Part shown: positions 21,032 through 36,363 of the stretch, piece after piece
Layout: each line of letters starts with the position of its first letter
How positions within the stretch are numbered: position 1 is the first letter of the stretch
From: a virus
Virus record (IMG/VR): IMGVR_UViG_3300020215_000050
Span: 85,495-123,282 of that record
DNA length: 37,788 bases
Strand: one strand, 5' to 3'
Program-made: the position numbers and the translations under genes
The notes under the pieces: model-generated
The model's input: the letters and a program-made list of their open reading frames with translations, nothing else
Databases searched by the model: none
What the model was told of the DNA's origin: nothing

Positions 21032-21435
21032 CGGATCCTCGCGAGAACCTGGTTGAGTTCGACCACCTCGGGCGAGTTCTGGATCCCGAACGTGACCGTC
21101 GCCATGTAGCTGTTGTAGTCGGGCTGCATCCTGACGACGACGTCGATCAGCCTCGCCCTCGGCTCCCAGTTCGTGATCGTCGTGATGATCGCCTGCCGGA
21201 TGAGCTCCGCGGTGACCGGCGTGACGTTCTCGAACAGGTACTTCTGCAGGCCCGAGCCGATGTACGGCCTGAACCGTCGCTCGAACGGGCCCGTGAGGAG
21301 CAGGGTCCTCACCGACCTCTTCACCGCGTCGGCGTTGGTGACCAGCGCGACGTCTCCCTTGAGGGGGTGGACGTCGAGGTTGATCCGGAAGTCCCGGTAG
21401 CGGACCGGGACCTTCTCTCGCTCGGTCCTCGCCAT
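21028..21435 (-). CDS. gp25: Baseplate wedge subunit gp25
   Basis: HP.KGD......AVKRSVRTLLLT..FER.F.P.IGS.L...LFE...WEPRA. Confidence 0.95.
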   Translation of the reverse strand: MARTEREKVPVRYRDFRINLDVHPLKGDVALVTNADAVKRSVRTLLLTGPFERRFRPYIGSGLQKYLFENVTPVTAELIRQAIITTITNWEPRARLIDVVVRMQPDYNSYMATVTFGIQNSPEVVELNQVLARIR

Positions 21436-21436
21436 C

Positions 21437-21553
21437 CTAGTGGTTCAGGCTTCCCAGCGCGTGGAGGAGGTAGAACAGGCAGAACGCCCCGAACGCCGCC
21501 AGACCCGCGAGGAGACCGATCCACATCCCGATTATCTTCAGCCATTCCTTCAT
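21437..21553 (-). CDS. 38-aa single-TM membrane peptide (MKEWLKIIGMWIGLLAGLAAFGAFCLFYLLHALGSLNH)
   Basis: Below the ORF-track cutoff. Fills the gap exactly; late promoter 6 nt upstream. Confidence 0.65.
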   Translation of the reverse strand: MKEWLKIIGMWIGLLAGLAAFGAFCLFYLLHALGSLNH

Positions 21554-21559
21554 GGCCGC

Positions 21560-21567
21560 TATTTAGG
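21560..21567 (-). promoter_or_regulatory. Late promoter (CCTAAATA), probably leaderless transcript
   Basis: Overlaps the upstream stop codon; 6 nt to the ATG. Confidence 0.6.
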
Positions 21568-23749
21568 ATGAACTCGGGGGCTCCCACTCGAGCGTGCTGT
21601 ACCTCGTCGGGTTCGTCGAGTCCTGGTTCAGCTCCTGCGCCTCCTGGGCCTTCGCGAACTTGTCGACGTCGGTGTTGGCGCTCTTCTGCTCGTAGACGAG
21701 GAGACCCGCGTCGATCCACGGCTTCCAGTTCGTGTTCGCGTACTGCTGGTAGTTCGAGATCGGGTTCCACTTCTCGTACTGGCCCCTCGCCTCGTAGTCG
21801 ACCTGGTGGCCGCTGAACTTGCCCTGGACGGTCGTCATGACGCCGGTGTTCGCCGTGTTCGCCAACTCCGTCGCGGGCAGGTCGACGCCCGTCGTCGTCC
21901 GCGTGACGTGCTCGTTCGCCTCGTTCTTGGCGATCTGGAAGGCCGACGCCCACTCGTCGTGGGTGAGGGTGCTCCGGTCGTGGTTGGCGACCTGCTTGGC
22001 GAGGGAGGCCGCGTACTGGATCGTCTGGTCGAAGTTCCCGGTGTCGACCGTGGCGCAGCCCTGGAGGACGCCGGACGGGTCGAACTTCCCGAACAGGTCG
22101 TGGCCCATGCCGCCGAAGACCTTGGAGCTCGTCATCGAGGTGACGTCGTCGAGGAGCCCCGAGCCGCGGGACATGCTCGAGAGTCCGCCGTTGAGGATGC
22201 CCGCGGTGGCGTTCCCCATCGTCTGCCCCTGCCCGTTCTGCATCAGGTAGGCGAGTCCGGCCGCGGCTCCCCCGATGTGGTCCCGGTAGACGGCCATGCC
22301 GCCCGCCTCGCCCAGGTAGCCGAAGCGGGTGACGAGGTCGGTCACCCCCTCCACCTTGGGCACCTTGAGGGGGTTGTTGGCGCGGACGTTGAACGGGATC
22401 GTGTTCTGGGTGTCGCCGTCGTCGAGCTGGGTCACCTCGGACAGCTGCCTGAAGGCCGGGTGGCTGCTCGTCGGGAACAGCTTCCAGTTCTTCTCGGTCT
22501 GGCTCGGGCACCGGACGGAGCCCTGGAGGGCGGAGAGGACGCTCTTCGCCATGCCCAGCTTCTCGGCGAGGCCGCCGGACAGGAACGGGTTGGACTTCAT
22601 CCCGAGCGAGCTCGCCAGCTCCGCCTGCTTGGCGGGGGACTCGAACAGTTCCAGGTCCTGGAGCAGGTCCTCCAGCGTGGAGTAGTCGTCCGTCTCCTCG
22701 TGGTGGATGTCGGCGTCGGTGTCGTGGGTGGCCGTGTTCGCCGCCACGGCGTCGGCGAAGCTCGCGTTCGACTTGACGACGTGGAGGAGCCGGTTGACGG
22801 AGACGACGGAGTTGTCCCAGGTCGTCTGCAGCTTCCTCAGGCCCTTGACGCCGGGGGCGGAGTCGACCACGGTGATGAGGGTCGGCGTGTCCGGGTAGTA
22901 GTCCAGGCTGATGAGGTCGAAGTTGAGCTTCAGCGCGAGGTCCATCGCCTTCTGATAGACCCGCTGCGGGTTGGCCCTGGGTTCGATCCGGACCACCCTG
23001 CCCCGCCGCGCCTCTGGGAAGGGCGTGAAGGCCCCCGACTGGACGTAGCCGGAGTGGATAAGGAAGGTGACCGTGCGGTCGCTGTAGCCCAGGTTCTGGG
23101 CCGCCTGGAGGGCGTCGAGGTACTGGTTGGGGGCGTTGACTCGCTCGATGACGTTGACCGCCAGGTGCTTGAGGTTCTCGACGATCTGCTTCTTGGTCAG
23201 CCCGTCCTGGTCCGCGAGTATCTGCTGGGCGTAGCCCGCGACGAGGACGTTGACGAGCCGGTAGTTGTCGCTGAGCTGGTAGCTCTGGGCCGTGTAGGCG
23301 TCGGAGTCGAGCACCGACGTGTTCGTCGTTGGCCTCGCCCCCTCGGGGACGGCCGTGAAGTAGCCCGGGTTGACCTCCTGGGCGGTCACCGCCCTCTCGA
23401 GCCGGGCGTAGTACCTGCCCAGGCCGGCCATGAGGGCCCGCATGTCCACGGTGGAGCTGAAGTTGGTGAAGTCCCACGTGTTGTTCGACGCCGCGGTGGC
23501 CGACACCCTGACCTGGTTGTGGCCGGAGTTCGGGCGTCGCTCCGTCGTCACCTCGCCCGTGATGACGTCGATGTAGAGGGTGTTCGCTGCCTCCCGGTTG
23601 TTGGAGCGGGTCGTCGTCTGCCTCGGGTTGGGGTTGCCGAGCAGCGGAACTGCGGTCACCGCGTACTTCGGGATCGTGACGCCCGTGGACAGGAGGACGC
23701 TGTTGCCGACCTCGGTCGCCCCCGGCGGGATGAAGACCTTGCTTACCAC
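21563..23749 (-). CDS. Baseplate-hub-associated protein with degenerate peptidase M15-like domain
   Basis: QLSDNYRL...IVENLKHLAVNVIERV...IHSGY parallels the M15 domain of gp5 but lacks the Zn ligands; GTG start overlaps the gp5 stop. Confidence 0.7.
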   Translation of the reverse strand: MVSKVFIPPGATEVGNSVLLSTGVTIPKYAVTAVPLLGNPNPRQTTTRSNNREAANTLYIDVITGEVTTERRPNSGHNQVRVSATAASNNTWDFTNFSSTVDMRALMAGLGRYYARLERAVTAQEVNPGYFTAVPEGARPTTNTSVLDSDAYTAQSYQLSDNYRLVNVLVAGYAQQILADQDGLTKKQIVENLKHLAVNVIERVNAPNQYLDALQAAQNLGYSDRTVTFLIHSGYVQSGAFTPFPEARRGRVVRIEPRANPQRVYQKAMDLALKLNFDLISLDYYPDTPTLITVVDSAPGVKGLRKLQTTWDNSVVSVNRLLHVVKSNASFADAVAANTATHDTDADIHHEETDDYSTLEDLLQDLELFESPAKQAELASSLGMKSNPFLSGGLAEKLGMAKSVLSALQGSVRCPSQTEKNWKLFPTSSHPAFRQLSEVTQLDDGDTQNTIPFNVRANNPLKVPKVEGVTDLVTRFGYLGEAGGMAVYRDHIGGAAAGLAYLMQNGQGQTMGNATAGILNGGLSSMSRGSGLLDDVTSMTSSKVFGGMGHDLFGKFDPSGVLQGCATVDTGNFDQTIQYAASLAKQVANHDRSTLTHDEWASAFQIAKNEANEHVTRTTTGVDLPATELANTANTGVMTTVQGKFSGHQVDYEARGQYEKWNPISNYQQYANTNWKPWIDAGLLVYEQKSANTDVDKFAKAQEAQELNQDSTNPTRYSTLEWEPPSSS

Positions 23750-26700
23750 CTTCGGATCCTACCCCCGTTGCCCGAGCGGGACCAGCCGACGTGGACCCAG
23801 CTCTTGTAGATGCCGATGGACGTGACCTGCGGGATGTTTCTCTCGATCCACGCCGCGACCTCCCTCGGCGACTTGCCCGCGACCTTGATGTCCGCGGCCT
23901 GCCCCTGGATGTGGTCGGAGTTCTTCGCCACGCCCGAGCTCTTCTTCCTCAGCGCGGCGTTGTACTCGGGCGACCGGTAGCCGGACGTGATCGTGACGTT
24001 CCCGACGTTGTCCTGGATGCGGTCGAGGACGTTCGTCGCCAGCGCAGAGAGGTTCTTAATTATCGTGCCCGAGGCGACCTGTCCGCGGGGCGTGTTGATC
24101 ATCGCCGGGTGCTTCAGTTTACTGGTCGGGCAGAGGTCGCCCAGCGTGAAGTACCTGGAGATCTTGGTGCCCTCGTTGACGTCCCCGCCGACGACGCCCC
24201 GCTCGCCCACCATCGGCTCCTTCTCCGCCTGGGCGGGCGTCTGCTCCTCGCCCACGCCGGTCTGGAAGTCGCCGGGCTTGTTGTTGGCCCCGCCCGTGAA
24301 CGCGTCGATGTTCGACGGCTGCTGGCCGCCGACGCCGGTCTCGTTGCCGCCGAAGCACTCGTTGTAGACGCCCATGCCGTAGCCGGCCCGGTTGCCCCAC
24401 GCCCCGCCGCTGAACGCCCCGTTGTCCCAGCCCTGGAACCTCTCGTATGCGGCCGCTCCCCTGATGGCCCCCGCCATGTCGGTCGCGTTGATCATGCCCG
24501 CGCCCCCCGAGCCCGAGTGGCTGCCCCTCGCCTCGTGGTCGATGAAGCGCACCTGCGCCTCCCGCGTCCTGTAGTCAAGGCCGTTCTGCTGGCTGAACTG
24601 CTGGAGGGCCGTCAGCCTCGGTCCCCGCCACTGGGCCATGCCGAAGCTCGTGCCCGCGTCGCCGAGGGCCTGCGGGTTGAGCGAGCTCTCCTGGATGAGG
24701 GCGCCCGTCATGGCCGCGGCGCCGTGCCTGGACCAGCCCCTCGACACGAGGTCGTTGGCGATGTCGCAGGCGTTGCCCCTGAAGTTGCCGAGGGACGCCG
24801 GTCCCACGGGTCCGCCGCCGGTCGTCGGCTGGAAGAGGTCGCCCCCCGCCGTGGCGCCGCCGCCGGAGTTGATCGAGCCCGGGGCCTCCTGGCCGTTCTG
24901 GCCCTGCTCGTCCTGGGCCTCGTTGGCGTCCATCTCGCCCTGCGTGACCTGCTCGGAGTTGATGTTGGAGGCCGAGTCCGCGGGCGTGCTCTCGGGGGTG
25001 AGCTGGGCCGGGGTCGCCTCGACGTTGGCGGTGGAGGTGCCCGTCGCGGCCGTGGCCGACGCCGCCCCGCCCGAGTTGAGGTGGATCTGGGTGCCGTCGG
25101 CGTTGATGTTGCCGCCGGCCTTGAGGTTCATCGCCCCGCCGGACTGCATGTTGAAGACGCCGCCGCTCTTCTCGTGGATCGCCCCCGTGGCCGTGATCAG
25201 CGCGTCGGACGCGACGACGACCTTCAGGCCCGCCTTCGTCTCGATCAGCTGGTCGCCCCTCGCGATCGCGGTCATCTTGCCGTTGGCGTTGAGGACGAAG
25301 TTGCCGCCCGAGGAGATGATCGCCTCCTTCTGCGACTGGAGGGCGAGGTTCTTCGCGTGCATCGCGGTGGCGCCGATCGTCTGCTCGCTCCGGTTGCCCT
25401 CGACGTGGCTGACGGAGTCGCCGTGGACGGTCTCGCCCGAGTTCCCCCTCACCACCCGCTGGTCCGTGCCCCTGACGGAGGTGTGCCTCTTGCCGCCGAC
25501 CTGGACGTCGTGGTCCTTGCCCACGCGGGTGACGGCGTTCTTCTTCGTCTGCTGGATGGAGCTGCCCTCGGTCACCCTCGCCGAGTCGCCCCTGACCAGC
25601 TCGTGGAGCTCTCCCGCCACGTTGACGAGGTACTTGCCCGTGACGTCCCAGCGCACGTTGCCCTGGACGGAGATGTTGAAGTCGCCGCCGATCGACAGCT
25701 TCACCGAGCCCATGACGCCCACCGAGTCGTCGCCGATGACGACCTGGTAGCGGTCCTTCCTGATGTAGAAGATGCCCGAGCCGTCCGCCTGGAGCTGGAT
25801 CATCGAGCCCGAGGGGTGGAGGACCTCGACCTTCTGGTTGCCCGGCGTGTCGTCGAGGAGGATGTGGTTGCCGCCCTCGGTCGACTTGACCATGTGGGCC
25901 ATGCCGTACTCGCCGCCGTGGTTGTAGAGGGGCACCGCCCACTCGCGGGGCACGGACCGGGCGTCGAGGGAGTCCGCCTCGCGGGCCTCCTTGAACTGCC
26001 ACAGGGTCGGCTCCTGGATCTTGGCGAGGTACTGCTGCTCGGGGCCGCCGCCGACGTCTCGGAAGCCCGTCGTCGCGGGTCCCCCCGAGAGCGCGTTCGT
26101 CCTGACGGGCGCAGGCACGTCCGACTGCCTTGTGGCGGCGTACGTCGGCACGGGATGGTGGGGGCCGCCCTGATAGCCCCGGGAGGCCCCCGGCCCAGCC
26201 GAGGGAGCCTGGCTCTGGTCGTCGCCGGAGCCGCCTCCCCCCTGGGTGGTGTCGTTGACCGGGTCGATGACCTGGCCGGGCACGGAGCCCGGGTCGGACG
26301 GGTTGGAGATCCTCTTCGTCCCGTCCTTCTCGACGTTGGAGTTGGTGTTGTAGCGGTTCTGCATCCAGTGCGGGACGCTGAACGTCGGGCACTCCTTGGA
26401 CGAGAACTCGTTGTGGCCGGCGACCCTCAGCTGGGGGAAGCGGCGGATGAAGGCGTCGACGAGCTTGCCCAGGACGTCGAACTGGATCGCGTGGAACTTG
26501 GAGTCGAGGGGCAGCCTCATCAGGTTCGACCGCTGGCCCGACTCGGGGAGCCCGCCGATGAGGCAGATGCCGATGTTCTGCATCGACTGGCCGCCGATGG
26601 ACGGGCGGTTCATGTTGCCCGTGTGGCTGCCCGTCTGGCCCATGTCGCGGGTGCGGATCAGCTGGCCCGTCTCGTCGATGACGAGGTGATAGCCGATCCC

Positions 26701-27660
26701 CTTCCCGTCCATGTCCGACCTGCTCAGGTGGTCGGCCCTCATCTGGTCGAGCGAGTAGCGGGAGTTCTTCTTGGTCGCCGAGCAGTGGATCGTGATCATG
26801 CCCACGTCCTGGGGTGCGGTGGCGACGATGGCGTCGAAGTCGGACCTGACCTGGGCCGTCATGTTCTGGGCGGTGAAGGGCTCGCCCGGTCCTGCGGCGG
26901 AGCCCATGTTGGCGCCCGCGAGGGGCGAGGGCTCACGGGCCGCGGTGGGCACGGTCGCGCCGCCCGCGCCGAAGAGCGTCTTGGCGAGGTCGGGGAAGTT
27001 GGCGAGCGTCTGGTCGCCCACGCCGGCCGCGCCCTGCGGCCTCTGCATGCCCGTGTTGACCTGGCCCGGGCTGAGCCTGTCGATGGCGGCGGCGAGCGGC
27101 GCGAGGGTCGGTCCGGGTCCGCCGATGCCGGACATCGCGTAGACCATCTTGACTGCGTCGTCGTTCTTGAGCAGGTTGGCCATGTTCATGACCGAGCCCA
27201 CCGTCGAGCCGAACTTGCCCCCCGAGCCCAGGCCCGGGATGCCGCCCGCGAGGCCGGTCTGGAAGAGGCCGCCGATGCCGCCGGGTCCCGCCGACGAGAT
27301 GGCGTGCTGCCTGCCCAGGTATTCCCTCTGCAGGGGAGAGAAGCCCGGCCTGCCCGCGAAGGAGCCGAAGACGACGGGCTGCTGGGCGTCCCTGCCGTCG
27401 AGGAAGACGCCGAACACCCACGAGCCGTCCTTGAGGTCGTGGTTCTGGCCGATGCCGGACATGCCCGATGCCGTCGTCGGCAGCATCACCCACGCCCACG
27501 GGAGGTCCGCCGTGGGGACGCCGCCTGCAGCTCGTTCCGGGTGGACGCCGAGGCAGCGCACCTGGACGCGTCCCATCTGGAGCGGGTCCTGGACGTTCTC
27601 CACCACGCCGATGTAGGCCGTCAGGCCCGCGGCGAACCAGTTCTCCGGGTCCTGTCTCAC
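23743..27660 (-). CDS. gp5: Baseplate central spike gp5 with amidase, tail-lysozyme and M15 peptidase domains
   Basis: OB-fold GVVENVQDPLQMGRVQVRCLG.H...LPWA...GSWVFG.FLDG..AQQP; TEGGNH...DDTPG.....HPSG; V.G beta-helix repeats; three hydrolase motifs. Confidence 0.93.
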   Translation of the reverse strand: MRQDPENWFAAGLTAYIGVVENVQDPLQMGRVQVRCLGVHPERAAGGVPTADLPWAWVMLPTTASGMSGIGQNHDLKDGSWVFGVFLDGRDAQQPVVFGSFAGRPGFSPLQREYLGRQHAISSAGPGGIGGLFQTGLAGGIPGLGSGGKFGSTVGSVMNMANLLKNDDAVKMVYAMSGIGGPGPTLAPLAAAIDRLSPGQVNTGMQRPQGAAGVGDQTLANFPDLAKTLFGAGGATVPTAAREPSPLAGANMGSAAGPGEPFTAQNMTAQVRSDFDAIVATAPQDVGMITIHCSATKKNSRYSLDQMRADHLSRSDMDGKGIGYHLVIDETGQLIRTRDMGQTGSHTGNMNRPSIGGQSMQNIGICLIGGLPESGQRSNLMRLPLDSKFHAIQFDVLGKLVDAFIRRFPQLRVAGHNEFSSKECPTFSVPHWMQNRYNTNSNVEKDGTKRISNPSDPGSVPGQVIDPVNDTTQGGGGSGDDQSQAPSAGPGASRGYQGGPHHPVPTYAATRQSDVPAPVRTNALSGGPATTGFRDVGGGPEQQYLAKIQEPTLWQFKEAREADSLDARSVPREWAVPLYNHGGEYGMAHMVKSTEGGNHILLDDTPGNQKVEVLHPSGSMIQLQADGSGIFYIRKDRYQVVIGDDSVGVMGSVKLSIGGDFNISVQGNVRWDVTGKYLVNVAGELHELVRGDSARVTEGSSIQQTKKNAVTRVGKDHDVQVGGKRHTSVRGTDQRVVRGNSGETVHGDSVSHVEGNRSEQTIGATAMHAKNLALQSQKEAIISSGGNFVLNANGKMTAIARGDQLIETKAGLKVVVASDALITATGAIHEKSGGVFNMQSGGAMNLKAGGNINADGTQIHLNSGGAASATAATGTSTANVEATPAQLTPESTPADSASNINSEQVTQGEMDANEAQDEQGQNGQEAPGSINSGGGATAGGDLFQPTTGGGPVGPASLGNFRGNACDIANDLVSRGWSRHGAAAMTGALIQESSLNPQALGDAGTSFGMAQWRGPRLTALQQFSQQNGLDYRTREAQVRFIDHEARGSHSGSGGAGMINATDMAGAIRGAAAYERFQGWDNGAFSGGAWGNRAGYGMGVYNECFGGNETGVGGQQPSNIDAFTGGANNKPGDFQTGVGEEQTPAQAEKEPMVGERGVVGGDVNEGTKISRYFTLGDLCPTSKLKHPAMINTPRGQVASGTIIKNLSALATNVLDRIQDNVGNVTITSGYRSPEYNAALRKKSSGVAKNSDHIQGQAADIKVAGKSPREVAAWIERNIPQVTSIGIYKSWVHVGWSRSGNGGRIRRW

Positions 27661-29278: not shown

Positions 29279-29798
29279 CGAACACGGTCCTCAGCTCATC
29301 GTATGCCTGCTGCGCGTAGCGGCGGTCGAGGAGGCGGATGGACCTCCTGTCCTCGTTCCTCGCCTGCTCGTACTCCCAGATCGTGACCTCCGTGTCGAAC
29401 CCGATCCTCTCCGCGGGCGGGAGGGCGGCCCGCGTCTCTGGGCTCATCCAGTAGGTGATCGCCGGGTCCGTGTTCTCGTAGTGGTGGACGGTGGACGCCG
29501 CGTGCTCGTAGGAGCCGTACTTGTCGACGACGTACGCGTGCAGGTCCTCCTCGGTCATCACCCAGTCGACGTAGGGGTCGAGGATGTCGTTCGCGAGGTA
29601 GACGAGCCAGACGTACTTGGAGTCGCCGTAGTAGGCGAACGCGATCGTGTCGGGCCTGTCCCACGCCTTGACGGAGTAGGGATAGAAGACCCGGTACTTC
29701 TCGATCACCTCCCTGCCCAGGCCCGCCCTCAGGAGCAGGTTGAGCGCCGCGCGGTCCTCGTACTCGACCCGCGGGTGCGCCTTGAACCAGTCGCCCAT
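29262..29798 (-). CDS. gp53: Baseplate wedge subunit gp53 (LysM-like)
   Basis: DRPDTIAFAYYGDSKYVWLVYLANDILDPY.DW...KYG...HHY...EYE...NE.RR.I.LL. Confidence 0.93.
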   Translation of the reverse strand: MGDWFKAHPRVEYEDRAALNLLLRAGLGREVIEKYRVFYPYSVKAWDRPDTIAFAYYGDSKYVWLVYLANDILDPYVDWVMTEEDLHAYVVDKYGSYEHAASTVHHYENTDPAITYWMSPETRAALPPAERIGFDTEVTIWEYEQARNEDRRSIRLLDRRYAQQAYDELRTVFGGDRI

Positions 29799-30685
29799 CA
29801 GGCAGTCCCCGTGTTGTCGGTGCCGGCGCCGCCCGTGCCCGGGGTGGTGGTGCCCGTGCCGCCCGGCGCGGTGTTGCCGTCGTAGGTCTCGCGGGTGGCC
29901 GCCTCGACCTCCTTCAGCGTGATGCCGAACTCGATCACGCAGGGCTCGTCGGAGCCGGCGAAGAAGGCCTTGACCCCGTCCGCCGAGTTGTCGACGTGCA
30001 GCTCGGTCACCACGCTCTTGAAGATGGGATAAAGAATTTCTTTGTCGCCGGCGAGGAACTTGACGTAGACCTCGTTGGGGAAGTTGAGCAGGAACTCGTT
30101 CTTCTTCGTCGGGTGCATCCTCGAGCGGATGTACTTGAGGATGTCCCTCAGCGCCTGGCTGTCCTCCTTGGTCTCCGGCGCGACCCTCCAGTGGAGCTGG
30201 TGGGTGCGGAGGTGGACGCCCTCGAAGACCGCCGTGATGTGCGGGTTGATCGCCGTGCCCGTGAACCGGTCGAAGATGCCGCCCGGGATCAGCGCGGACA
30301 TCGTCCTTCTCGCCAGGCTCTTGGCGAAGTCGGGGAGCACCTGACCGCCCTCCTGGAGGAGGTCCTCGAGCGTGCCCCCCTCGATGTACTTGTTCACCAT
30401 CGGCTCGGTGACGTTGGCGAGTCCCCCCACGAGGCCGAACTCCTCCTCGGCGTACTGGATGCCGTAGCTCTCGTGCAGGTTGAGCGGGAGGGGGAGGACG
30501 ATGGAGGCCTGGTCGACCCGTATCGCCTTCTGCTTGGGGTTCGACCGCTTGAACTCGACGAACTGGAGGATCGTGAAGTAGTGGGCGTGGTCGTGCGGGA
30601 ACCGGAGCGAGGAGGTGCCGCCGGTGACGGACTCCATGCCTGCCGGGATCGCCTCTTCTGGTAGTGGACTGGAGCGGTTGGCCAT
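29798..30685 (-). CDS. gp48: Baseplate tail-tube cap gp48
   Basis: IVLPLP......Y...Y, AINPH....FEG..LRTH...W..AP....DS, P.......TLKEVE. Confidence 0.85.
   Translation of the reverse strand: MANRSSPLPEEAIPAGMESVTGGTSSLRFPHDHAHYFTILQFVEFKRSNPKQKAIRVDQASIVLPLPLNLHESYGIQYAEEEFGLVGGLANVTEPMVNKYIEGGTLEDLLQEGGQVLPDFAKSLARRTMSALIPGGIFDRFTGTAINPHITAVFEGVHLRTHQLHWRVAPETKEDSQALRDILKYIRSRMHPTKKNEFLLNFPNEVYVKFLAGDKEILYPIFKSVVTELHVDNSADGVKAFFAGSDEPCVIEFGITLKEVEAATRETYDGNTAPGGTGTTTPGTGGAGTDNTGTA
30015..30031. promoter_or_regulatory. Dispersed pseudo-palindrome copy CTCTTGAA-G-ATGGGATA with adjacent palindrome at 30028-30046
   Basis: AT island in gp48 (AAA GAA ATT CTT TAT). Confidence 0.4.
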
Positions 30686-30709: not shown

Positions 30710-30717
30710 TATTTATT
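30710..30717 (-). promoter_or_regulatory. Late promoter (AATAAATA) heading the baseplate unit
   Basis: In the divergent gp48/gp4 intergenic region. Confidence 0.75.
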
Positions 30718-30730
30718 GTGGATTCTAGCG

Positions 30731-31174
30731 ATGGCTTGGAAGGGGAAGTTCAGACCCCTCAACCCCGGAAAGTACAGGGGCAAGGACCTCAACAACATCA
30801 TCTATCGCTCGAGCCTGGAGCTCCGGTTCATGCGCTACTGCGACACCTCGAGCAGGGTGGTCTGGTGGTCGTCGGAGGAGGTGGTCGTCCCCTACTACGA
30901 CCCCGTCAAGAAGAAGCAGAGGCGCTACTTCCCCGACTTCGTGCTGTGCCGGCTCACCCCCGAGGGCGAGGAGGAGAAGATCATGGTCGAGATCAAGATG
31001 GCGAGGGAGAGCCTGCCGCCCACCCACTACAAGGGGAAGAGGAAGGCCCGCGTCATCTCCGAGGAGCTGACGTGGCGGACCAACCAGGCCAAGTGGGCCG
31101 CGGCGCGGCTCTTCTGCAATAAATACAACCTTAGATTTGAGCTCGTAGACGAGAAGGTGGTCGCAAGACTCTAA
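30731..31174 (+). CDS. gp4: Head completion nuclease gp4 (TnsA-like)
   Basis: MAWKGKFRPLNPGKYRG...IIYRSSLE..FM.YCD...W.SEE..VPY...RYFPDF...VEIK...NQAKW.AA. Start moved to ATG 30731. Confidence 0.95.
   Translation: MAWKGKFRPLNPGKYRGKDLNNIIYRSSLELRFMRYCDTSSRVVWWSSEEVVVPYYDPVKKKQRRYFPDFVLCRLTPEGEEEKIMVEIKMARESLPPTHYKGKRKARVISEELTWRTNQAKWAAARLFCNKYNLRFELVDEKVVARL
31118..31125 (+). promoter_or_regulatory. Late promoter (AATAAATA) embedded in gp4
   Basis: Codons AAT AAA; about 49 nt upstream of gp2. Confidence 0.6.
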
Positions 31175-31752
31175 TGGCAGGCGGTCCGTTCACGGAGATC
31201 CTTCGCAGAGCGTATCAGACCGGCCGCACCCCCGACCGGGTGGACAGCCGCGAGTGGTTCAGGGCCCAGGCCCAGAAGGTCCGCTCCGTCAACGTCCAGC
31301 GCCTCGTCCTCGACCCGCGAGCTACGCAGACCCTCGTGCCGGGGAAGATGTACCACTACTTCTACGACCCCAAGCACAAGGACACGCTCCCCTACTACGA
31401 CAGGTTCCCGCTGATATTTCCGTTCCGCCTGCTCGAGGGCGGCTTCATGGGCATCAACCTCCACTACCTGCCCTACCCGGCGAGGGCCCGGCTCATGGAC
31501 GCGCTCTACTCCCTCGAAGACCGCCGGTACAAGGAGGACAAGCGCCTCCGCCTCAGCTACGAGATCCTCAACTCCGCCGCGAGGTTCTCGTACTTCAAGC
31601 CCTGCGTCAAGCGGTACCTCAACGGCCACGTCCGGTCCCAGTTCCTCCCCATCCCGTCGGAGCAGTGGGAGATAGCCCTCTTCCTGCCCACCGAGCGGTT
31701 CATGAAGGAGAGCAAGCAGGACGTCTGGAAAGATTCGATGGACAAGCTCTAA
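31174..31752 (+). CDS. gp2: DNA end protector gp2
   Basis: PGKMY.YFYDPKHKDTLPYYDRFPLI...GF.GINLHYLP...KPCVKRYL..HV.S...W..ALFLP.E.F. Confidence 0.96.
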   Translation: MAGGPFTEILRRAYQTGRTPDRVDSREWFRAQAQKVRSVNVQRLVLDPRATQTLVPGKMYHYFYDPKHKDTLPYYDRFPLIFPFRLLEGGFMGINLHYLPYPARARLMDALYSLEDRRYKEDKRLRLSYEILNSAARFSYFKPCVKRYLNGHVRSQFLPIPSEQWEIALFLPTERFMKESKQDVWKDSMDKL

Positions 31753-32411
31753 TGGACATCCAGCGCTTCCACTCCGCCCTCGGCAGGCTCAACGGCGTCT
31801 CGTCGCCGGCGAGGTTCCGGGTCAGGGTCTTCGCCGACTGGGCGAGGTCCGACGCCGAGGACTCCGCCTTCGGCCGCGAGTTCGAGTTCTGGTGCGTCTC
31901 GTGCCAGATGCCGGGCATGACCTTCCTGACGGCGGACGTCGACAACATGGGCTACGGCCCCCGCAAGGACTTCCCCACCGTCCCCGTCTACGAGCCGGTC
32001 AGCATGCAGTGCATCGTCGACGGCACGCAGGCGGTCACCACCTTCTTCACCCGGTGGTGCCAGAACGCGGTGAACATCAACTTCGAGCCCCACGGCGCGC
32101 TGGCGGGCAGGTCCCGCGGCGCCTACCCCTTCCAGGTCCGCTACGAGAAGGAGTACGTCGCCGAGAGGGTCTCGATCCAGGCCTACGACGAGGAGGGCTT
32201 CGTCACCCGCGAGGTCGACCTCCACCAGGCCTTCCCCAAACACATGGGCGCCCTCGAGTACAACTGGGCGACCACCGACAGCCTGCTGATCCTGCCCGTG
32301 ACGCTGATGTACTACACGTGGACGAGCACGGACATGTACGGCAACCAGGGCGGCACCCAGGCCGCCCACACCTCCGGCTCCGTCCCCGACGAGCCCGAGA
32401 CAGACCTCTAA
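31752..32411 (+). CDS. gp54: Baseplate tail-tube initiator gp54 (gp19 fold)
   Basis: True start is ATG 31752 (TAATG overlap). C....MPG..F.T, YGP....P....Y..V, FF..W, AFP......YNW. Confidence 0.8.
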   Translation: MDIQRFHSALGRLNGVSSPARFRVRVFADWARSDAEDSAFGREFEFWCVSCQMPGMTFLTADVDNMGYGPRKDFPTVPVYEPVSMQCIVDGTQAVTTFFTRWCQNAVNINFEPHGALAGRSRGAYPFQVRYEKEYVAERVSIQAYDEEGFVTREVDLHQAFPKHMGALEYNWATTDSLLILPVTLMYYTWTSTDMYGNQGGTQAAHTSGSVPDEPETDL

Positions 32412-32429: not shown

Positions 32430-32633
32430 ATGTGGTTGAAGCTTACCAAGGCAAACGAAACCGTTCCAGACGTTTGGATCAACATGAGCCTCGTTGTCCG
32501 CATATACGCGAACGAGACCAACAGTTACACCACGATCGACTTCCAGGATGCAGATCACATCCAGGACAACATCGTGGAGACGCCGGAGCAGATTTTTAAT
32601 ATGATGGAGAAAAAAAAGAATGCCGCTTCCTAA
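32430..32633 (+). CDS. Small hypothetical protein, FlbD-like pattern, low GC
   Basis: AAGGAG SD 8 nt before ATG 32430; WLKLT...VWIN...V.RI...T.I.F......VETPEQI. Confidence 0.6.
   Translation: MWLKLTKANETVPDVWINMSLVVRIYANETNSYTTIDFQDADHIQDNIVETPEQIFNMMEKKKNAAS
32595..32611. promoter_or_regulatory. Dispersed pseudo-palindrome copy TTTAATAT-G-ATGGAGAA
   Basis: Good right half-site, overlapping the gp26 RBS; lies in an AT-rich gene, so less diagnostic. Confidence 0.35.
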
Positions 32634-33309
32634 GATAGACCACCCCCTGTTCGACGCCACCCTGCCATCGGGGAAGAAGGTGAAGTACAGGCCGTTCACC
32701 GTCAAGGAGGAGAAGGTGCTCCTCCTCGCCAAGGAGGGGAACGACGCCAAGTCGGCGTTCGGCGCCACCCAGCAGATCGTCAACAACTGCGTCGTCGGCG
32801 ACGTCCAGGCGGACAGGCTGCCCCTGTTCGACATCGAGTACCTGTTCCTCCTCATCAGGGCCAAGTCCGTCGGCTCGAAGGTGAAGCTCAGGATTCGCCA
32901 TGATGAAAAAACCACCGTCGACACGGAGGTGGACCTGAACCAGATCAACGTGCGCCAGCCGGCCAAACCCCACAAGGGCGTCGTCCAGCTCAACAAGAGC
33001 GTGGGCATCAAGCTCCGGCACCCGACGATCACCACGCTGATGGAGCGGGACCTAAAGGACATCTACGACGTCCTCGCCGACTGCATCGACAAGGTCTTCG
33101 AGGGCGACGAGGTCTACGACCTCAAGGACTTCAAGAAGGAGGAGGTGGACGAGTTCATCTCCGGCTTCACGACCGAGCACATGGAGCAGATCAAGCAGTT
33201 CTTCGACAGCGCGCCGACGATCGAGATCACCGCGAAGTACAGGACGAAGGACGGCGGCGAGCACACCAAGACCATCTCGGGGCTCGGGGATTTTTTAGGG
33301 TCTGCCTGA
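32620..33309 (+). CDS. gp26: Baseplate hub assembly protein gp26-like
   Basis: MPLPKI..P.F...LPSGKKVKYRPFTVKEEKVLLLA...FDIEYLFL.IRAKSVG...I..FF...P...GL.DF. Confidence 0.92.
   Translation: MPLPKIDHPLFDATLPSGKKVKYRPFTVKEEKVLLLAKEGNDAKSAFGATQQIVNNCVVGDVQADRLPLFDIEYLFLLIRAKSVGSKVKLRIRHDEKTTVDTEVDLNQINVRQPAKPHKGVVQLNKSVGIKLRHPTITTLMERDLKDIYDVLADCIDKVFEGDEVYDLKDFKKEEVDEFISGFTTEHMEQIKQFFDSAPTIEITAKYRTKDGGEHTKTISGLGDFLGSA
32894..32910. promoter_or_regulatory. Dispersed pseudo-palindrome copy TTCGCCAT-G-ATGAAAAA
   Basis: Codons ATT CGC CAT GAT GAA AAA; shares an exact 15-mer with 6953-6967. Confidence 0.6.
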
Positions 33310-33343
33310 GCCACTCGTCTCTGGTGGCGCACTACAGGCTGAC
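33291..33343 (+). other. Putative -1 programmed ribosomal frameshift signal (U UUU UUA plus stem-loop)
   Basis: In-phase heptamer at 33291-33297; stems GCCTG(33304-08)/CAGGC(33335-39) and GCCAC(33310-14)/GTGGC(33324-28). Confidence 0.75.
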
Positions 33344-33485
33344 GTTCGAGATGAGACAGAGCTTCGGCTGGCCGATCGAGGAGCAGGAGGCCATGTACCC
33401 GTTCGAGAGGGACGCGTACCTGATGCTCCTAGAGGAGTGGGCCGAGAAGAAGGCGGAGAGGGCCGAGAAGGCTAAGAATGCTTAA
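33291..33485 (+). CDS. gp51: gp51-like baseplate hub assembly domain in the -1 frame of gp26
   Basis: LSHSSLVAHYRLTFEMRQSFGWPIEEQEAMYPFERDAYLMLLEEW matches the short gp51-like family pattern; no SD-supported start before the conserved part. Confidence 0.8.
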   Translation, partial: FFRVCLSHSSLVAHYRLTFEMRQSFGWPIEEQEAMYPFERDAYLMLLEEWAEKKAERAEKAKNA

Positions 33486-35373: not shown

Positions 35374-35756
35374 AGACGGTCCTGGCGGCCCTTCTCTGCC
35401 TCGGCTGGATGGCCTCCGAGGTCGGGACGATTACCGTGGGCGACGACCGGGGCGGGTTCCTCAACTTCTACATCGAGAAGACCGAGCGGTTCCGCCGGTC
35501 GGGCGAGAGGGTCCGCATCATGGGGAGGTGCGACTCCGCCTGCACCCTGTACCTGAGCCTGCCGAGGGTCTGCGTCGGCCCGAACGCCCGCCTCGGCTTC
35601 CACCAGGCCAGCCGGCCAGACGGCAACCCGATCCTCCTCAGCTACTACCCGAGGCCGATCCGCGACTGGCTAGACTCCGTAGGCGGACTGCCTCCTTTCT
35701 CTTCCCTGGTCGTGCTGCAAGGGGAGGCTCTTCGGCGCCTCGTTCCCCCGTGCTGA
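35370..35756 (+). CDS. Exported ClpP/crotonase-fold-like hypothetical protein, 128 aa
   Basis: GTGA overlap; signal-like MKTVLAALLCLGWMA; DRGG...GRCDSACT...VCV...A.LGFH motif. It is the real tail of ORF 33735..35756. Confidence 0.72.
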   Translation: MKTVLAALLCLGWMASEVGTITVGDDRGGFLNFYIEKTERFRRSGERVRIMGRCDSACTLYLSLPRVCVGPNARLGFHQASRPDGNPILLSYYPRPIRDWLDSVGGLPPFSSLVVLQGEALRRLVPPC

Positions 35757-36363
35757 GCTTGTACGCGTAGGCCTTCCACTCCACCCGCGTAGCAGTCTCA
35801 GTCCGCGTCCTCATCTTGATCGTGTCCAGCTGCTTCCTCTGGATCGTCGAGTCGATCATCGCCTGGAGGTTGTCCTGGATGAGGATCGCCACCCGCTCGC
35901 ACGCCCCCGCCTGGTCCTCGAGCCTCTTTTTCTCGTACTGGTCCTGCTCCGTCCTCGCCCTTAACTTGTACTCGGCCGCGAGGAGCCGGTTCCTCGTCGC
36001 GACGCTGAGGTAGTAGATCCTCATCTTCCTCGGGTTCGTGTCGATGTCCCGGAACCAGCGCTGGCTCTTTACCCTCACGAAACCCTCATACTGTCCCGGC
36101 AGCGGGACCCATATCCCGCACCTGTGGCGCTCCCGAAAGCGGACGACCTGGTTGGCGGTGACCCCCAGCCTCTGTAGGTTGTGAACGATCCAGCCAACGT
36201 ACTCAAAGGTCACAGACCGTTCCGTACGGTGGCCATCGCCATCGCGAAGAGGGGGATCCCGATCGAGAAAACCCGTATAGCGACCCTGACCCTTCGCGAG
36301 GACTCGTACCTCATCATGTACTCGAACCCCATCCCGCACAGGAACGAAAAGAACACCAGCCAT
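35638..36363 (-). CDS. Hypothetical protein (orphan)
   Basis: 241-aa ORF, helical C-half with phage-like codons. Extended -10 (TGaTATGTT, 36370-36378) lies 6 nt before the ATG. Confidence 0.6.
   Translation of the reverse strand: MAGVLFVPVRDGVRVHDEVRVLAKGQGRYTGFLDRDPPLRDGDGHRTERSVTFEYVGWIVHNLQRLGVTANQVVRFRERHRCGIWVPLPGQYEGFVRVKSQRWFRDIDTNPRKMRIYYLSVATRNRLLAAEYKLRARTEQDQYEKKRLEDQAGACERVAILIQDNLQAMIDSTIQRKQLDTIKMRTRTETATRVEWKAYAYKLSTGERGAEEPPLAARPGKRKEAVRLRSLASRGSASGSS

Follow-up and report, generated by a model that had tools for sequence, protein, structure and literature searches.

A probable -1 frameshift linking the gp26-like and gp51-like tail chaperone frames of an uncultured, GC-rich T4-like phage

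Does the tail assembly chaperone locus of a T4-like virus hold two genes, or a single gene that is read in two ways? This question is raised by a locus in the IMG/VR virus record IMGVR_UViG_3300020215_000050, of which a stretch of 37,788 nucleotides (nt) was analysed. This stretch, referred to as the window in the following, makes up the final 37.8 kb of a record with a length of 123 kb and a completeness of 74%; its G+C content is approximately 65%, and its source is an uncultured, GC-rich T4-like phage. Within the window, a gene resembling T4 gene 26 closes with a short run of thymines, and from this run onward a second frame, which resembles T4 gp51, stays open in the -1 register up to the beginning of a tape-measure-like gene. 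We consider it probable, at roughly 0.7, that one chaperone gene yields both a short and a long protein here by -1 ribosomal frameshifting on the heptamer T_TTT_TTA. The window is a further example of a published kind. The chaperone role of the two proteins was already published in 2022, when Vladimirov, Gautam and Davidson (Virology 2022;566:9-15, doi 10.1016/j.virol.2021.11.003) named gp26 and gp51 as tail assembly chaperones of T4-like phages. What the window contributes is a GC-rich member of the group that carries the TTTTTTA variant of the heptamer.

The zero-frame protein matches the Pfam family PF12322 (T4_baseplate) over residues 13-226 with an E-value (E) of 7e-57 and 193 bits, compared with a Pfam gathering cut-off of 24.5, and the PHROG family phrog_150 with E 7e-63. 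Its gene ends with GAT (33289) TTT TTA GGG TCT GCC TGA (33307-33309). A sequence-only reading, made from the letters of the window without database searches, had proposed that these last codons contain an in-phase slippery heptamer composed of codons that the genome almost never uses. Both parts of this proposal are borne out. The zero-frame codons across the site are GAT TTT TTA, and in 20 open reading frames (ORFs) of the window with high G+C content at third codon positions, TTT makes up 3.5% of the Phe codons, TTA 0.4% of the Leu codons and GAT 3.7% of the Asp codons. The six thymines are the sole T6 run on the plus strand of the entire 37.8 kb. The predicted sizes of the products, 229 amino acids (aa) for the zero-frame protein and 288 aa for the fusion, were given correctly as well, the latter number being the sum of 226 and 62 residues. 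In Rfam, no family was found at the shift site.

Read in the -1 frame, the DNA specifies FFRVCLSH at the heptamer and remains open for 62 codons, as FFRVCLSHSSLVAHYRLTFEM...MYPFERDAYL...KNA*, with the stop codon at 33483-33485. The same reading had been made from the letters alone, including the overlap with the tape-measure-like ORF, whose ATG at 33478 gives it 8 nt in common with the 3' end of the extension. The extension matches phrog_634, annotated as 'baseplate hub assembly catalyst', with E 4e-15, and the match begins at residue 2, before any start codon. The first candidates for an independent start are GTG 33324 and ATG 33351, neither of which has a purine-rich Shine-Dalgarno sequence upstream, in agreement with the earlier claim that the frame has no start supported in this way. 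Moreover, a gapless alignment to the -1 peptides of related phages places the invariant residues L9, Y13 and F17 in the part encoded 5' of ATG 33351. Structure prediction yields three helices with a predicted local distance difference test (pLDDT) score of 86, the first of which starts at residue 9 and hence upstream of both candidate starts. A predicted complex of the 62-aa extension with the tail-tube paralog encoded upstream scored 0.00; this prediction was run without controls and has no bearing either way.

The junction was compared in two sets of relatives, which overlap in part, as some contigs have identical lengths in both. The viral set comprised 80 contigs, whose gp26 is 37-45% identical to that of the window and which provided 62 non-redundant junctions, and the second set comprised 80 metagenome contigs with 74 distinct junctions. 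Over both sets, gp26 is 36-47% identical to the protein of the window; the metagenome scan returned no relative above 45% identity. In every one of the 62 viral and 74 metagenome junctions, a T_TTT_TT(T/C) heptamer is located 7-16 nt 5' of the gp26 stop codon. The codon preceding the run is ACT, AGT, GAT, TCT or AAT, so that T is constant at the third position, whereas the encoded residue may be T, S, D or N. Judged from these alignments, the heptamer and its frame relation are kept beyond what the protein sequence requires, at synonymous sites. The -1 peptides of the relatives have lengths of 56-66 aa and can be aligned without gaps from the heptamer onward, with the consensus FF-x-L-x-L-S-H-x-x-L-x-x-Y-Y...P-x-E-R-D and the motifs Q-H-H-K-Y and P-x-E-R-D-x-Y. 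A P-[FYW]-E-R motif is present in all 69 complete -1 ORFs of the metagenome set. By comparison, the first ATG of this frame is not fixed in position: it ranges from codon 4 to 45, and in a few loci it comes later (as far as codon 62) or is missing. In two of the loci (L006 and L007), codon 45 of 57 is reached without any ATG, GTG or TTG.

The same layout is found in isolated phages. The annotated gp51 lies in the -1 frame in S-PM2, phiM12 and HTVC008M, the gp26 genes of which end with TCT TTT TTC GCA TAA, AAT TTT TTT ACT TTG TGA and AGT TTT TTT TAA, respectively. Heptamer and -1 frame are likewise combined in Stenotrophomonas phage Mendera, Agrobacterium phage OLIVR6 and the KVP40-like Straboviridae phage QD01. 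The sequence-only reading had suggested that an alignment of gp26-gp51 junctions should reveal a conserved heptamer with gp51 always in the same register. An in-phase T_TTT_TTN is indeed conserved, with the gp51-like ORF invariably in the -1 frame, and a conserved independent start of gp51 with variable frame offsets was not found among the relatives.

A somewhat different situation is encountered in Ackermannviridae and similar phages, represented by Vibrio phage BX-1, Salmonella phage Sajous1 and Aeromonas phage TSW001. Here, gp26 is followed by a small -1 ORF with an M-P-W motif, and the gp26 genes, which end with GTT TTT CGC TAA, ATT TTC ATT TAA and CTT TTC ACT GTT TAA, respectively, contain no X_XXY_YYZ heptamer. 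For these small ORFs, only a slip of the P-site tRNA-Phe (on T_TTY) may be possible, or they may have a start of their own.

T4 itself offers an instructive comparison. The protein families are the same as in the window, with PF12322 as the shared domain and phrog_634 as the extension, and so is the pair of a short and a long protein. However, T4 and other Tevenvirinae encode the pair by two divergent genes without a slippery site, whereas the window has one gene with a predicted -1 shift. In T4 gp51 (249 aa), residues 1-201 match PF12322 (E 4e-52) and residues 147-246 match phrog_634 (E 1e-23), and the extension from the window aligns to the C-terminal ~50 residues of this protein. T4 gp26 (208 aa) ends with ...GLKEFFELL, which corresponds to the position of the heptamer in the relatives (GL-x-x-FF motif), and gp51 continues beyond this position into a segment that resembles the -1 peptide. 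Homology is thus observed across the shift site. Since gp51 matches both families and runs through the heptamer position, T4 gp51 is the predicted fusion in hard-wired form, encoded as one ORF. In the 123-kb record at its 74% completeness, there is only one PF12322 gene and no separate gene for a long form.

Genes 26 and 51 are divergently transcribed in T4, in Acinetobacter phage 133 (Acj133) and in Klebsiella phage Mineola. Both layouts occur inside the Straboviridae, in which the KVP40-like QD01 has the one-gene frameshift arrangement (GAT TTT TTC GTA TAA) and the Tevenvirinae carry 26 and 51 as two genes in divergent orientation. The N-domains of Tevenvirinae gp26 and gp51 cluster in a small tree with a weak support of 76/78, which is compatible with a duplication in the Tevenvirinae lineage. 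According to a passage of the PRFect paper that cites Vladimirov et al. 2022, some T4-like phages have a short gene and a longer fused gene, without frameshifting. A passage of the paper on phage Adele (PMC12846349) cites the same work for poly-T -1 frameshift signals in T4-like TAC-N genes. In addition, gp26 and gp51 have been described as hub assembly chaperones, of which gp51 is required and yet absent from the particle (Leiman et al. 2010, PMC3004832).

Further evidence comes from the RNA downstream of the heptamer. In single folds of the 60 nt 3' of the heptamer, a recurrent GAGYCA/UGGCUC pairing was spotted in the relatives, and its pairs were then counted on a gapless alignment of the 62 viral junctions (A1; columns 15-23 versus columns 62-70). 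In most relatives, this pairing forms a 9-bp stem that starts 7 nt after the heptamer and closes a 38-nt loop. With 84.6% of its cells paired, the stem clearly differs from the controls in which the 3' partner was slid by 1-3 columns (23-40%). Compensatory exchanges are seen at columns 16/69 (CG 25, UA 20) and columns 19/66 (AU 27, UA 8, UG 5), and both the observed paired fraction and the covariation score were reached by 0 of 500 shuffles. The changes are largely synonymous, pairing the Leu codons CUG/UUG with the Gln codons CAG/CAA or exchanging the Ala codons GCU/GCA. A start 7 nt past the heptamer is the usual position of a frameshift stimulator. Lineages without the 9-bp stem often feature a strong local hairpin 2-10 nt past the heptamer instead, as exemplified by S-PM2 (z -5.1) and L006 (z -4.2). 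The window is grouped with these local-hairpin lineages, and its own hairpin occupies the place of the covarying stem. RNAalifold gave no consensus structure for the full set of 62 junctions because the lineages differ. As a separate candidate for a stimulatory element, the Glu-Gly codons (GAG GGT) found 9-10 nt 5' in many relatives were considered as a Shine-Dalgarno-like sequence and dropped, as these codons vary freely (GAA, CAA, GGA, GGC).

Conceivably, the recoding signal of the family includes the conserved 9-bp downstream stem, which would have been replaced by a local hairpin in divergent lineages such as that of the window, with the one-gene layout, which extends from cyanophages to KVP40-like Straboviridae, being ancestral and the T4 pair reflecting a subsequent duplication by which the fusion became fixed. 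We advance this broader scenario tentatively, at somewhat below even odds.

Several observations weigh against ribosomal frameshifting in the window and have to be set against the evidence above. The sequence-only reading had described a stem-loop 6 nt after the heptamer, in which GCCTG/CAGGC encloses GCCAC/GTGGC. While this structure exists at the given distance (or starts 2 nt after the heptamer, if three extra outer pairs are counted), its value as a stimulator did not gain from folding: with -18.7 kcal/mol and a z of -1.18, it is no more stable than shuffled sequences, 25 out of 200 dinucleotide shuffles of which fold as well. In a 110-nt context, an alternative fold is preferred over the hairpin, and of the nine pairs of the relatives' stem, which the window lacks, only five would form. 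Moreover, the conserved element is a homopolymer, namely T6 in the window, mostly T7 in the relatives and T8 in some of them. Finally, the T run of the window is directly preceded by a weak terminator-like G-U hairpin (TCTCGG GGC TCGGGG, 33275-33289), although similar hairpins are equally common in shuffles.

The homopolymer and the preceding hairpin would suit transcriptional slippage, in which RNA polymerase adds one U at the T run, so that the fusion would be translated as a plain ORF from some of the mRNAs and no ribosomal shift would be needed. One added U yields exactly the -1 frame. The efficient slippage sites known from bacteria consist of runs of about 9 or more, but the runs in the 62 relatives comprise 6 (5 loci), 7 (52 loci) or 8 (5 loci) thymines and never 9 or more, and no more than six are present in the window and in the relatives with TTTTTTC. 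The covarying stem of the relatives, 7 nt downstream, is at the place of a ribosomal stimulator and not at that of a slippage hairpin, and no consistent structure is apparent in the 30 nt 5' of the run (mean z -0.39). From run length and downstream stem, we infer that ribosomal frameshifting is favoured over polymerase slippage, which we regard as an unlikely, albeit the most serious, competitor.

Alternatively, the gp51-like ORF could be translated independently, starting at GTG 33324 or ATG 33351, which would give two separate proteins and no fusion. Database records of relatives do carry a separate 'baseplate hub assembly catalyst' of 45-58 aa, and in several relatives an ATG is present 4-5 codons past the heptamer; its proximity to the stop codon of gp26 could allow coupled re-initiation. 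This explanation is nevertheless very improbable. In the window, it is contradicted by the missing Shine-Dalgarno sequences and by the invariant residues and the start of helix 1 that precede ATG 33351, and in some relatives by a first ATG that appears at codon 45 at the earliest or not at all. It also leaves unexplained that the gp51-like ORF occupies the -1 frame throughout the lineages examined, that the heptamer is kept at synonymous sites and that T4 gp51 is a continuous fusion. Homopolymer runs are prone to sequencing indels, which brings up an assembly error, by which the true genome would have one T more or fewer and gp26-gp51 would be one ordinary ORF. Such an error is hardly credible, given that the two-frame layout recurs in all of >130 distinct junctions from many assemblies as well as in finished genomes of isolated phages.

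Returning to ribosomal frameshifting, the following course of events can be proposed. Most ribosomes would read GAU UUU UUA GGG UCU GCC UGA and release the 229-aa protein, the presumed equivalent of T4 gp26, lambda gpG and TAC-N. A minority would slip back by one base on U_UUU_UUA, as the tRNA-Phe moves its pairing from one UUU to the UUU overlapping it, either jointly with the A-site tRNA-Leu or alone during the wait at the very rare UUA codon. The hairpin that starts 6 nt downstream may delay the ribosome on the heptamer. Shifted ribosomes would then continue with AGG GUC UGC ... as far as 33485 and produce the 288-aa protein, which would correspond to T4 gp51, lambda gpGT and TAC-NC and contain the junction peptide ...GLGDF(F/L)RVCLSH.... 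In analogy to lambda G/GT and T4 gp26/gp51, both forms may coat the tape measure protein, whose gene follows directly downstream, and the three-helix extension of the long form could dock the complex of chaperone and tape measure on the hub or on the initiation site of the tube. Neither form would be expected to stay in the virion.

The proposal that the gp26/gp51-like pair is the equivalent of G/GT, which was also part of the sequence-only reading, is supported by gene order and by the fold of the short form. The chaperone gene of the window is located between the tube and tape measure genes, and the order of tube paralog, gp26/51 and tape measure is shared with S-PM2, phiM12, HTVC008M and the KVP40-like QD01. 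In phiM12 and HTVC008M, the position of the tape-measure-like gene is taken by a gene annotated as tape measure. An AlphaFold2 (AF2) model of gp26 (pLDDT 91) was compared with 48,161 chains using VIA-align. The three top matches, all on gp26 residues 1-94, were 3fgx_B (Z 8.1), 2ob9_B (Z 7.0) and 3klu_A (YqbN, Z 6.7), with Z values that are moderate. Among them, 2ob9_B is the tail assembly chaperone of bacteriophage HK97, for which 83 residues were aligned at a root-mean-square deviation of 4.2 to residues 1-89 of the model. Foldseek found no match to the model in the PDB at E <= 0.001, and a profile search of PDB sequences with gp26 gave weak, unrelated matches only. The moderate likeness of the modelled fold to the HK97 chaperone and the order of tube, chaperone and tape measure genes thus favour the G/GT analogy.

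The resemblance to lambda gpG/gpGT comprises a gene placed between tube and tape measure and, as predicted for the window, two products with a shared N-terminus and a -1 shift within the last few codons of the short form. On the other hand, the sequences show no similarity that could be detected, gp26 exceeds gpG by ~90 residues and includes an additional C-terminal domain, and the heptamer is U_UUU_UUA in the window versus G_GGA_AAG in lambda. A -1 frameshift is reportedly conserved in tail assembly chaperone genes, a finding attributed to Xu, Hendrix and Duda (Mol Cell 2004). Outside of phages, the frameshift site of HIV-1 gag-pol consists of U_UUU_UUA and a downstream stem-loop. Hence its heptamer is identical to that of the window, and a hairpin follows a few nucleotides downstream in both cases; however, the HIV-1 site is used by a eukaryotic ribosome in an unrelated gene, and the resemblance is one of the signal only. 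A further comparison is offered by the chaperone frameshift proposed for Vandenendeviridae and Andersonviridae in the paper on Pseudomonas phage Adele (PMC12846349). It shares with the window a T-rich motif near the 3' end of TAC-N, a -1 frame that is uninterrupted across divergent genomes and the annotation of the downstream piece as a separate small gene, but differs in its motif, GTTTTT, and in belonging to another chaperone family.

Table 1. Positions of the chaperone locus and of adjacent genes in the window.
Feature	Position	Strand	Match or basis
gp48-like tube cap	29798-30685	minus	
gp4 head closure	30716-31174		
gp2 DNA end protector	31174-31752		
gp19-like tail-tube paralog, 5' of the chaperone gene	31752-32411	plus	phrog_45 tail tube, E 1e-19; weak PF06841
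68-aa ORF between tube paralog and gp26	32430-32633		
gp26-like gene, predicted TAC-N short form, zero frame, 229 aa	32620-33309	plus	PF12322, phrog_150
Slippery heptamer T_TTT_TTA	33291-33297	plus	in X_XXY_YYZ phase of gp26
6-nt spacer GGGTCT, heptamer to GCCTG stem	33298-33303	plus	sequence
Local GC-rich hairpin, candidate frameshift stimulator	33300-33343	plus	arms GCCTG/CAGGC and GCCAC/GTGGC
gp51-like -1 frame extension, 62 codons and stop; predicted C-terminal part of TAC-NC	33297-33485	plus	phrog_634
Tape-measure-like gene, 631 aa	33478-35373	plus	weak PHROG matches: phrog_1535 (8e-08), phrog_305, phrog_4200
gp32	farther along the window	minus	

A peculiarity of the window is the small ORF of 68 aa inserted before gp26 (Table 1). 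It has a good Shine-Dalgarno sequence (AAGGAG) and no family match. Since the tube paralog directly abuts gp26 in S-PM2, phiM12, HTVC008M and QD01, this ORF looks like a lineage-specific insertion. At its end, an A8 run (32610-32618), which is unusual for a genome with 65% G+C, forms an in-phase A_AAA_AAG (GAG AAA AAA AAG) 2 nt before the ATG of gp26. This motif was considered as a recoding site and rejected, as the -1 frame stops after 8 codons; the A8 stretch may possibly serve as an A-rich leader that aids the initiation of gp26. Elsewhere in the window, a gp5-like baseplate hub/tail lysozyme of 1304 aa (23743-27660, minus strand) combines an amidase-like region (residues ~281-448) with an endolysin-like C-terminus (residues ~1164-1304) according to its PHROG matches. 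For two further ORFs on the minus strand, of 241 aa (35638-36363) and 718 aa (21321-23477), no PHROG match was obtained at E <= 0.001.

Taken together, the locus bears on the annotation and on the assembly biology of the entire group. In hundreds of genomes of T4-like phages, a 'baseplate hub assembly catalyst' of 45-60 aa is annotated as a gene of its own. Such an entry almost certainly represents the C-terminal portion of a protein made by frameshifting, and the affected records should carry a joined coding sequence. The T4-like myoviruses would thereby join the near-universal short/long chaperone scheme of the long-tailed phages, and the fusion would explain why T4 gp51 looks like gp26 with an added tail. 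The covarying downstream stem provides a concrete handle on the distinction between ribosomal and polymerase slippage. If the stem is indeed part of the family's recoding signal and was not reported in the 2022 paper, it would be the first evidence for ribosomal frameshifting over RNA polymerase slippage. New insight is most likely to come from this stem and from the way in which one-gene and two-gene layouts are distributed.

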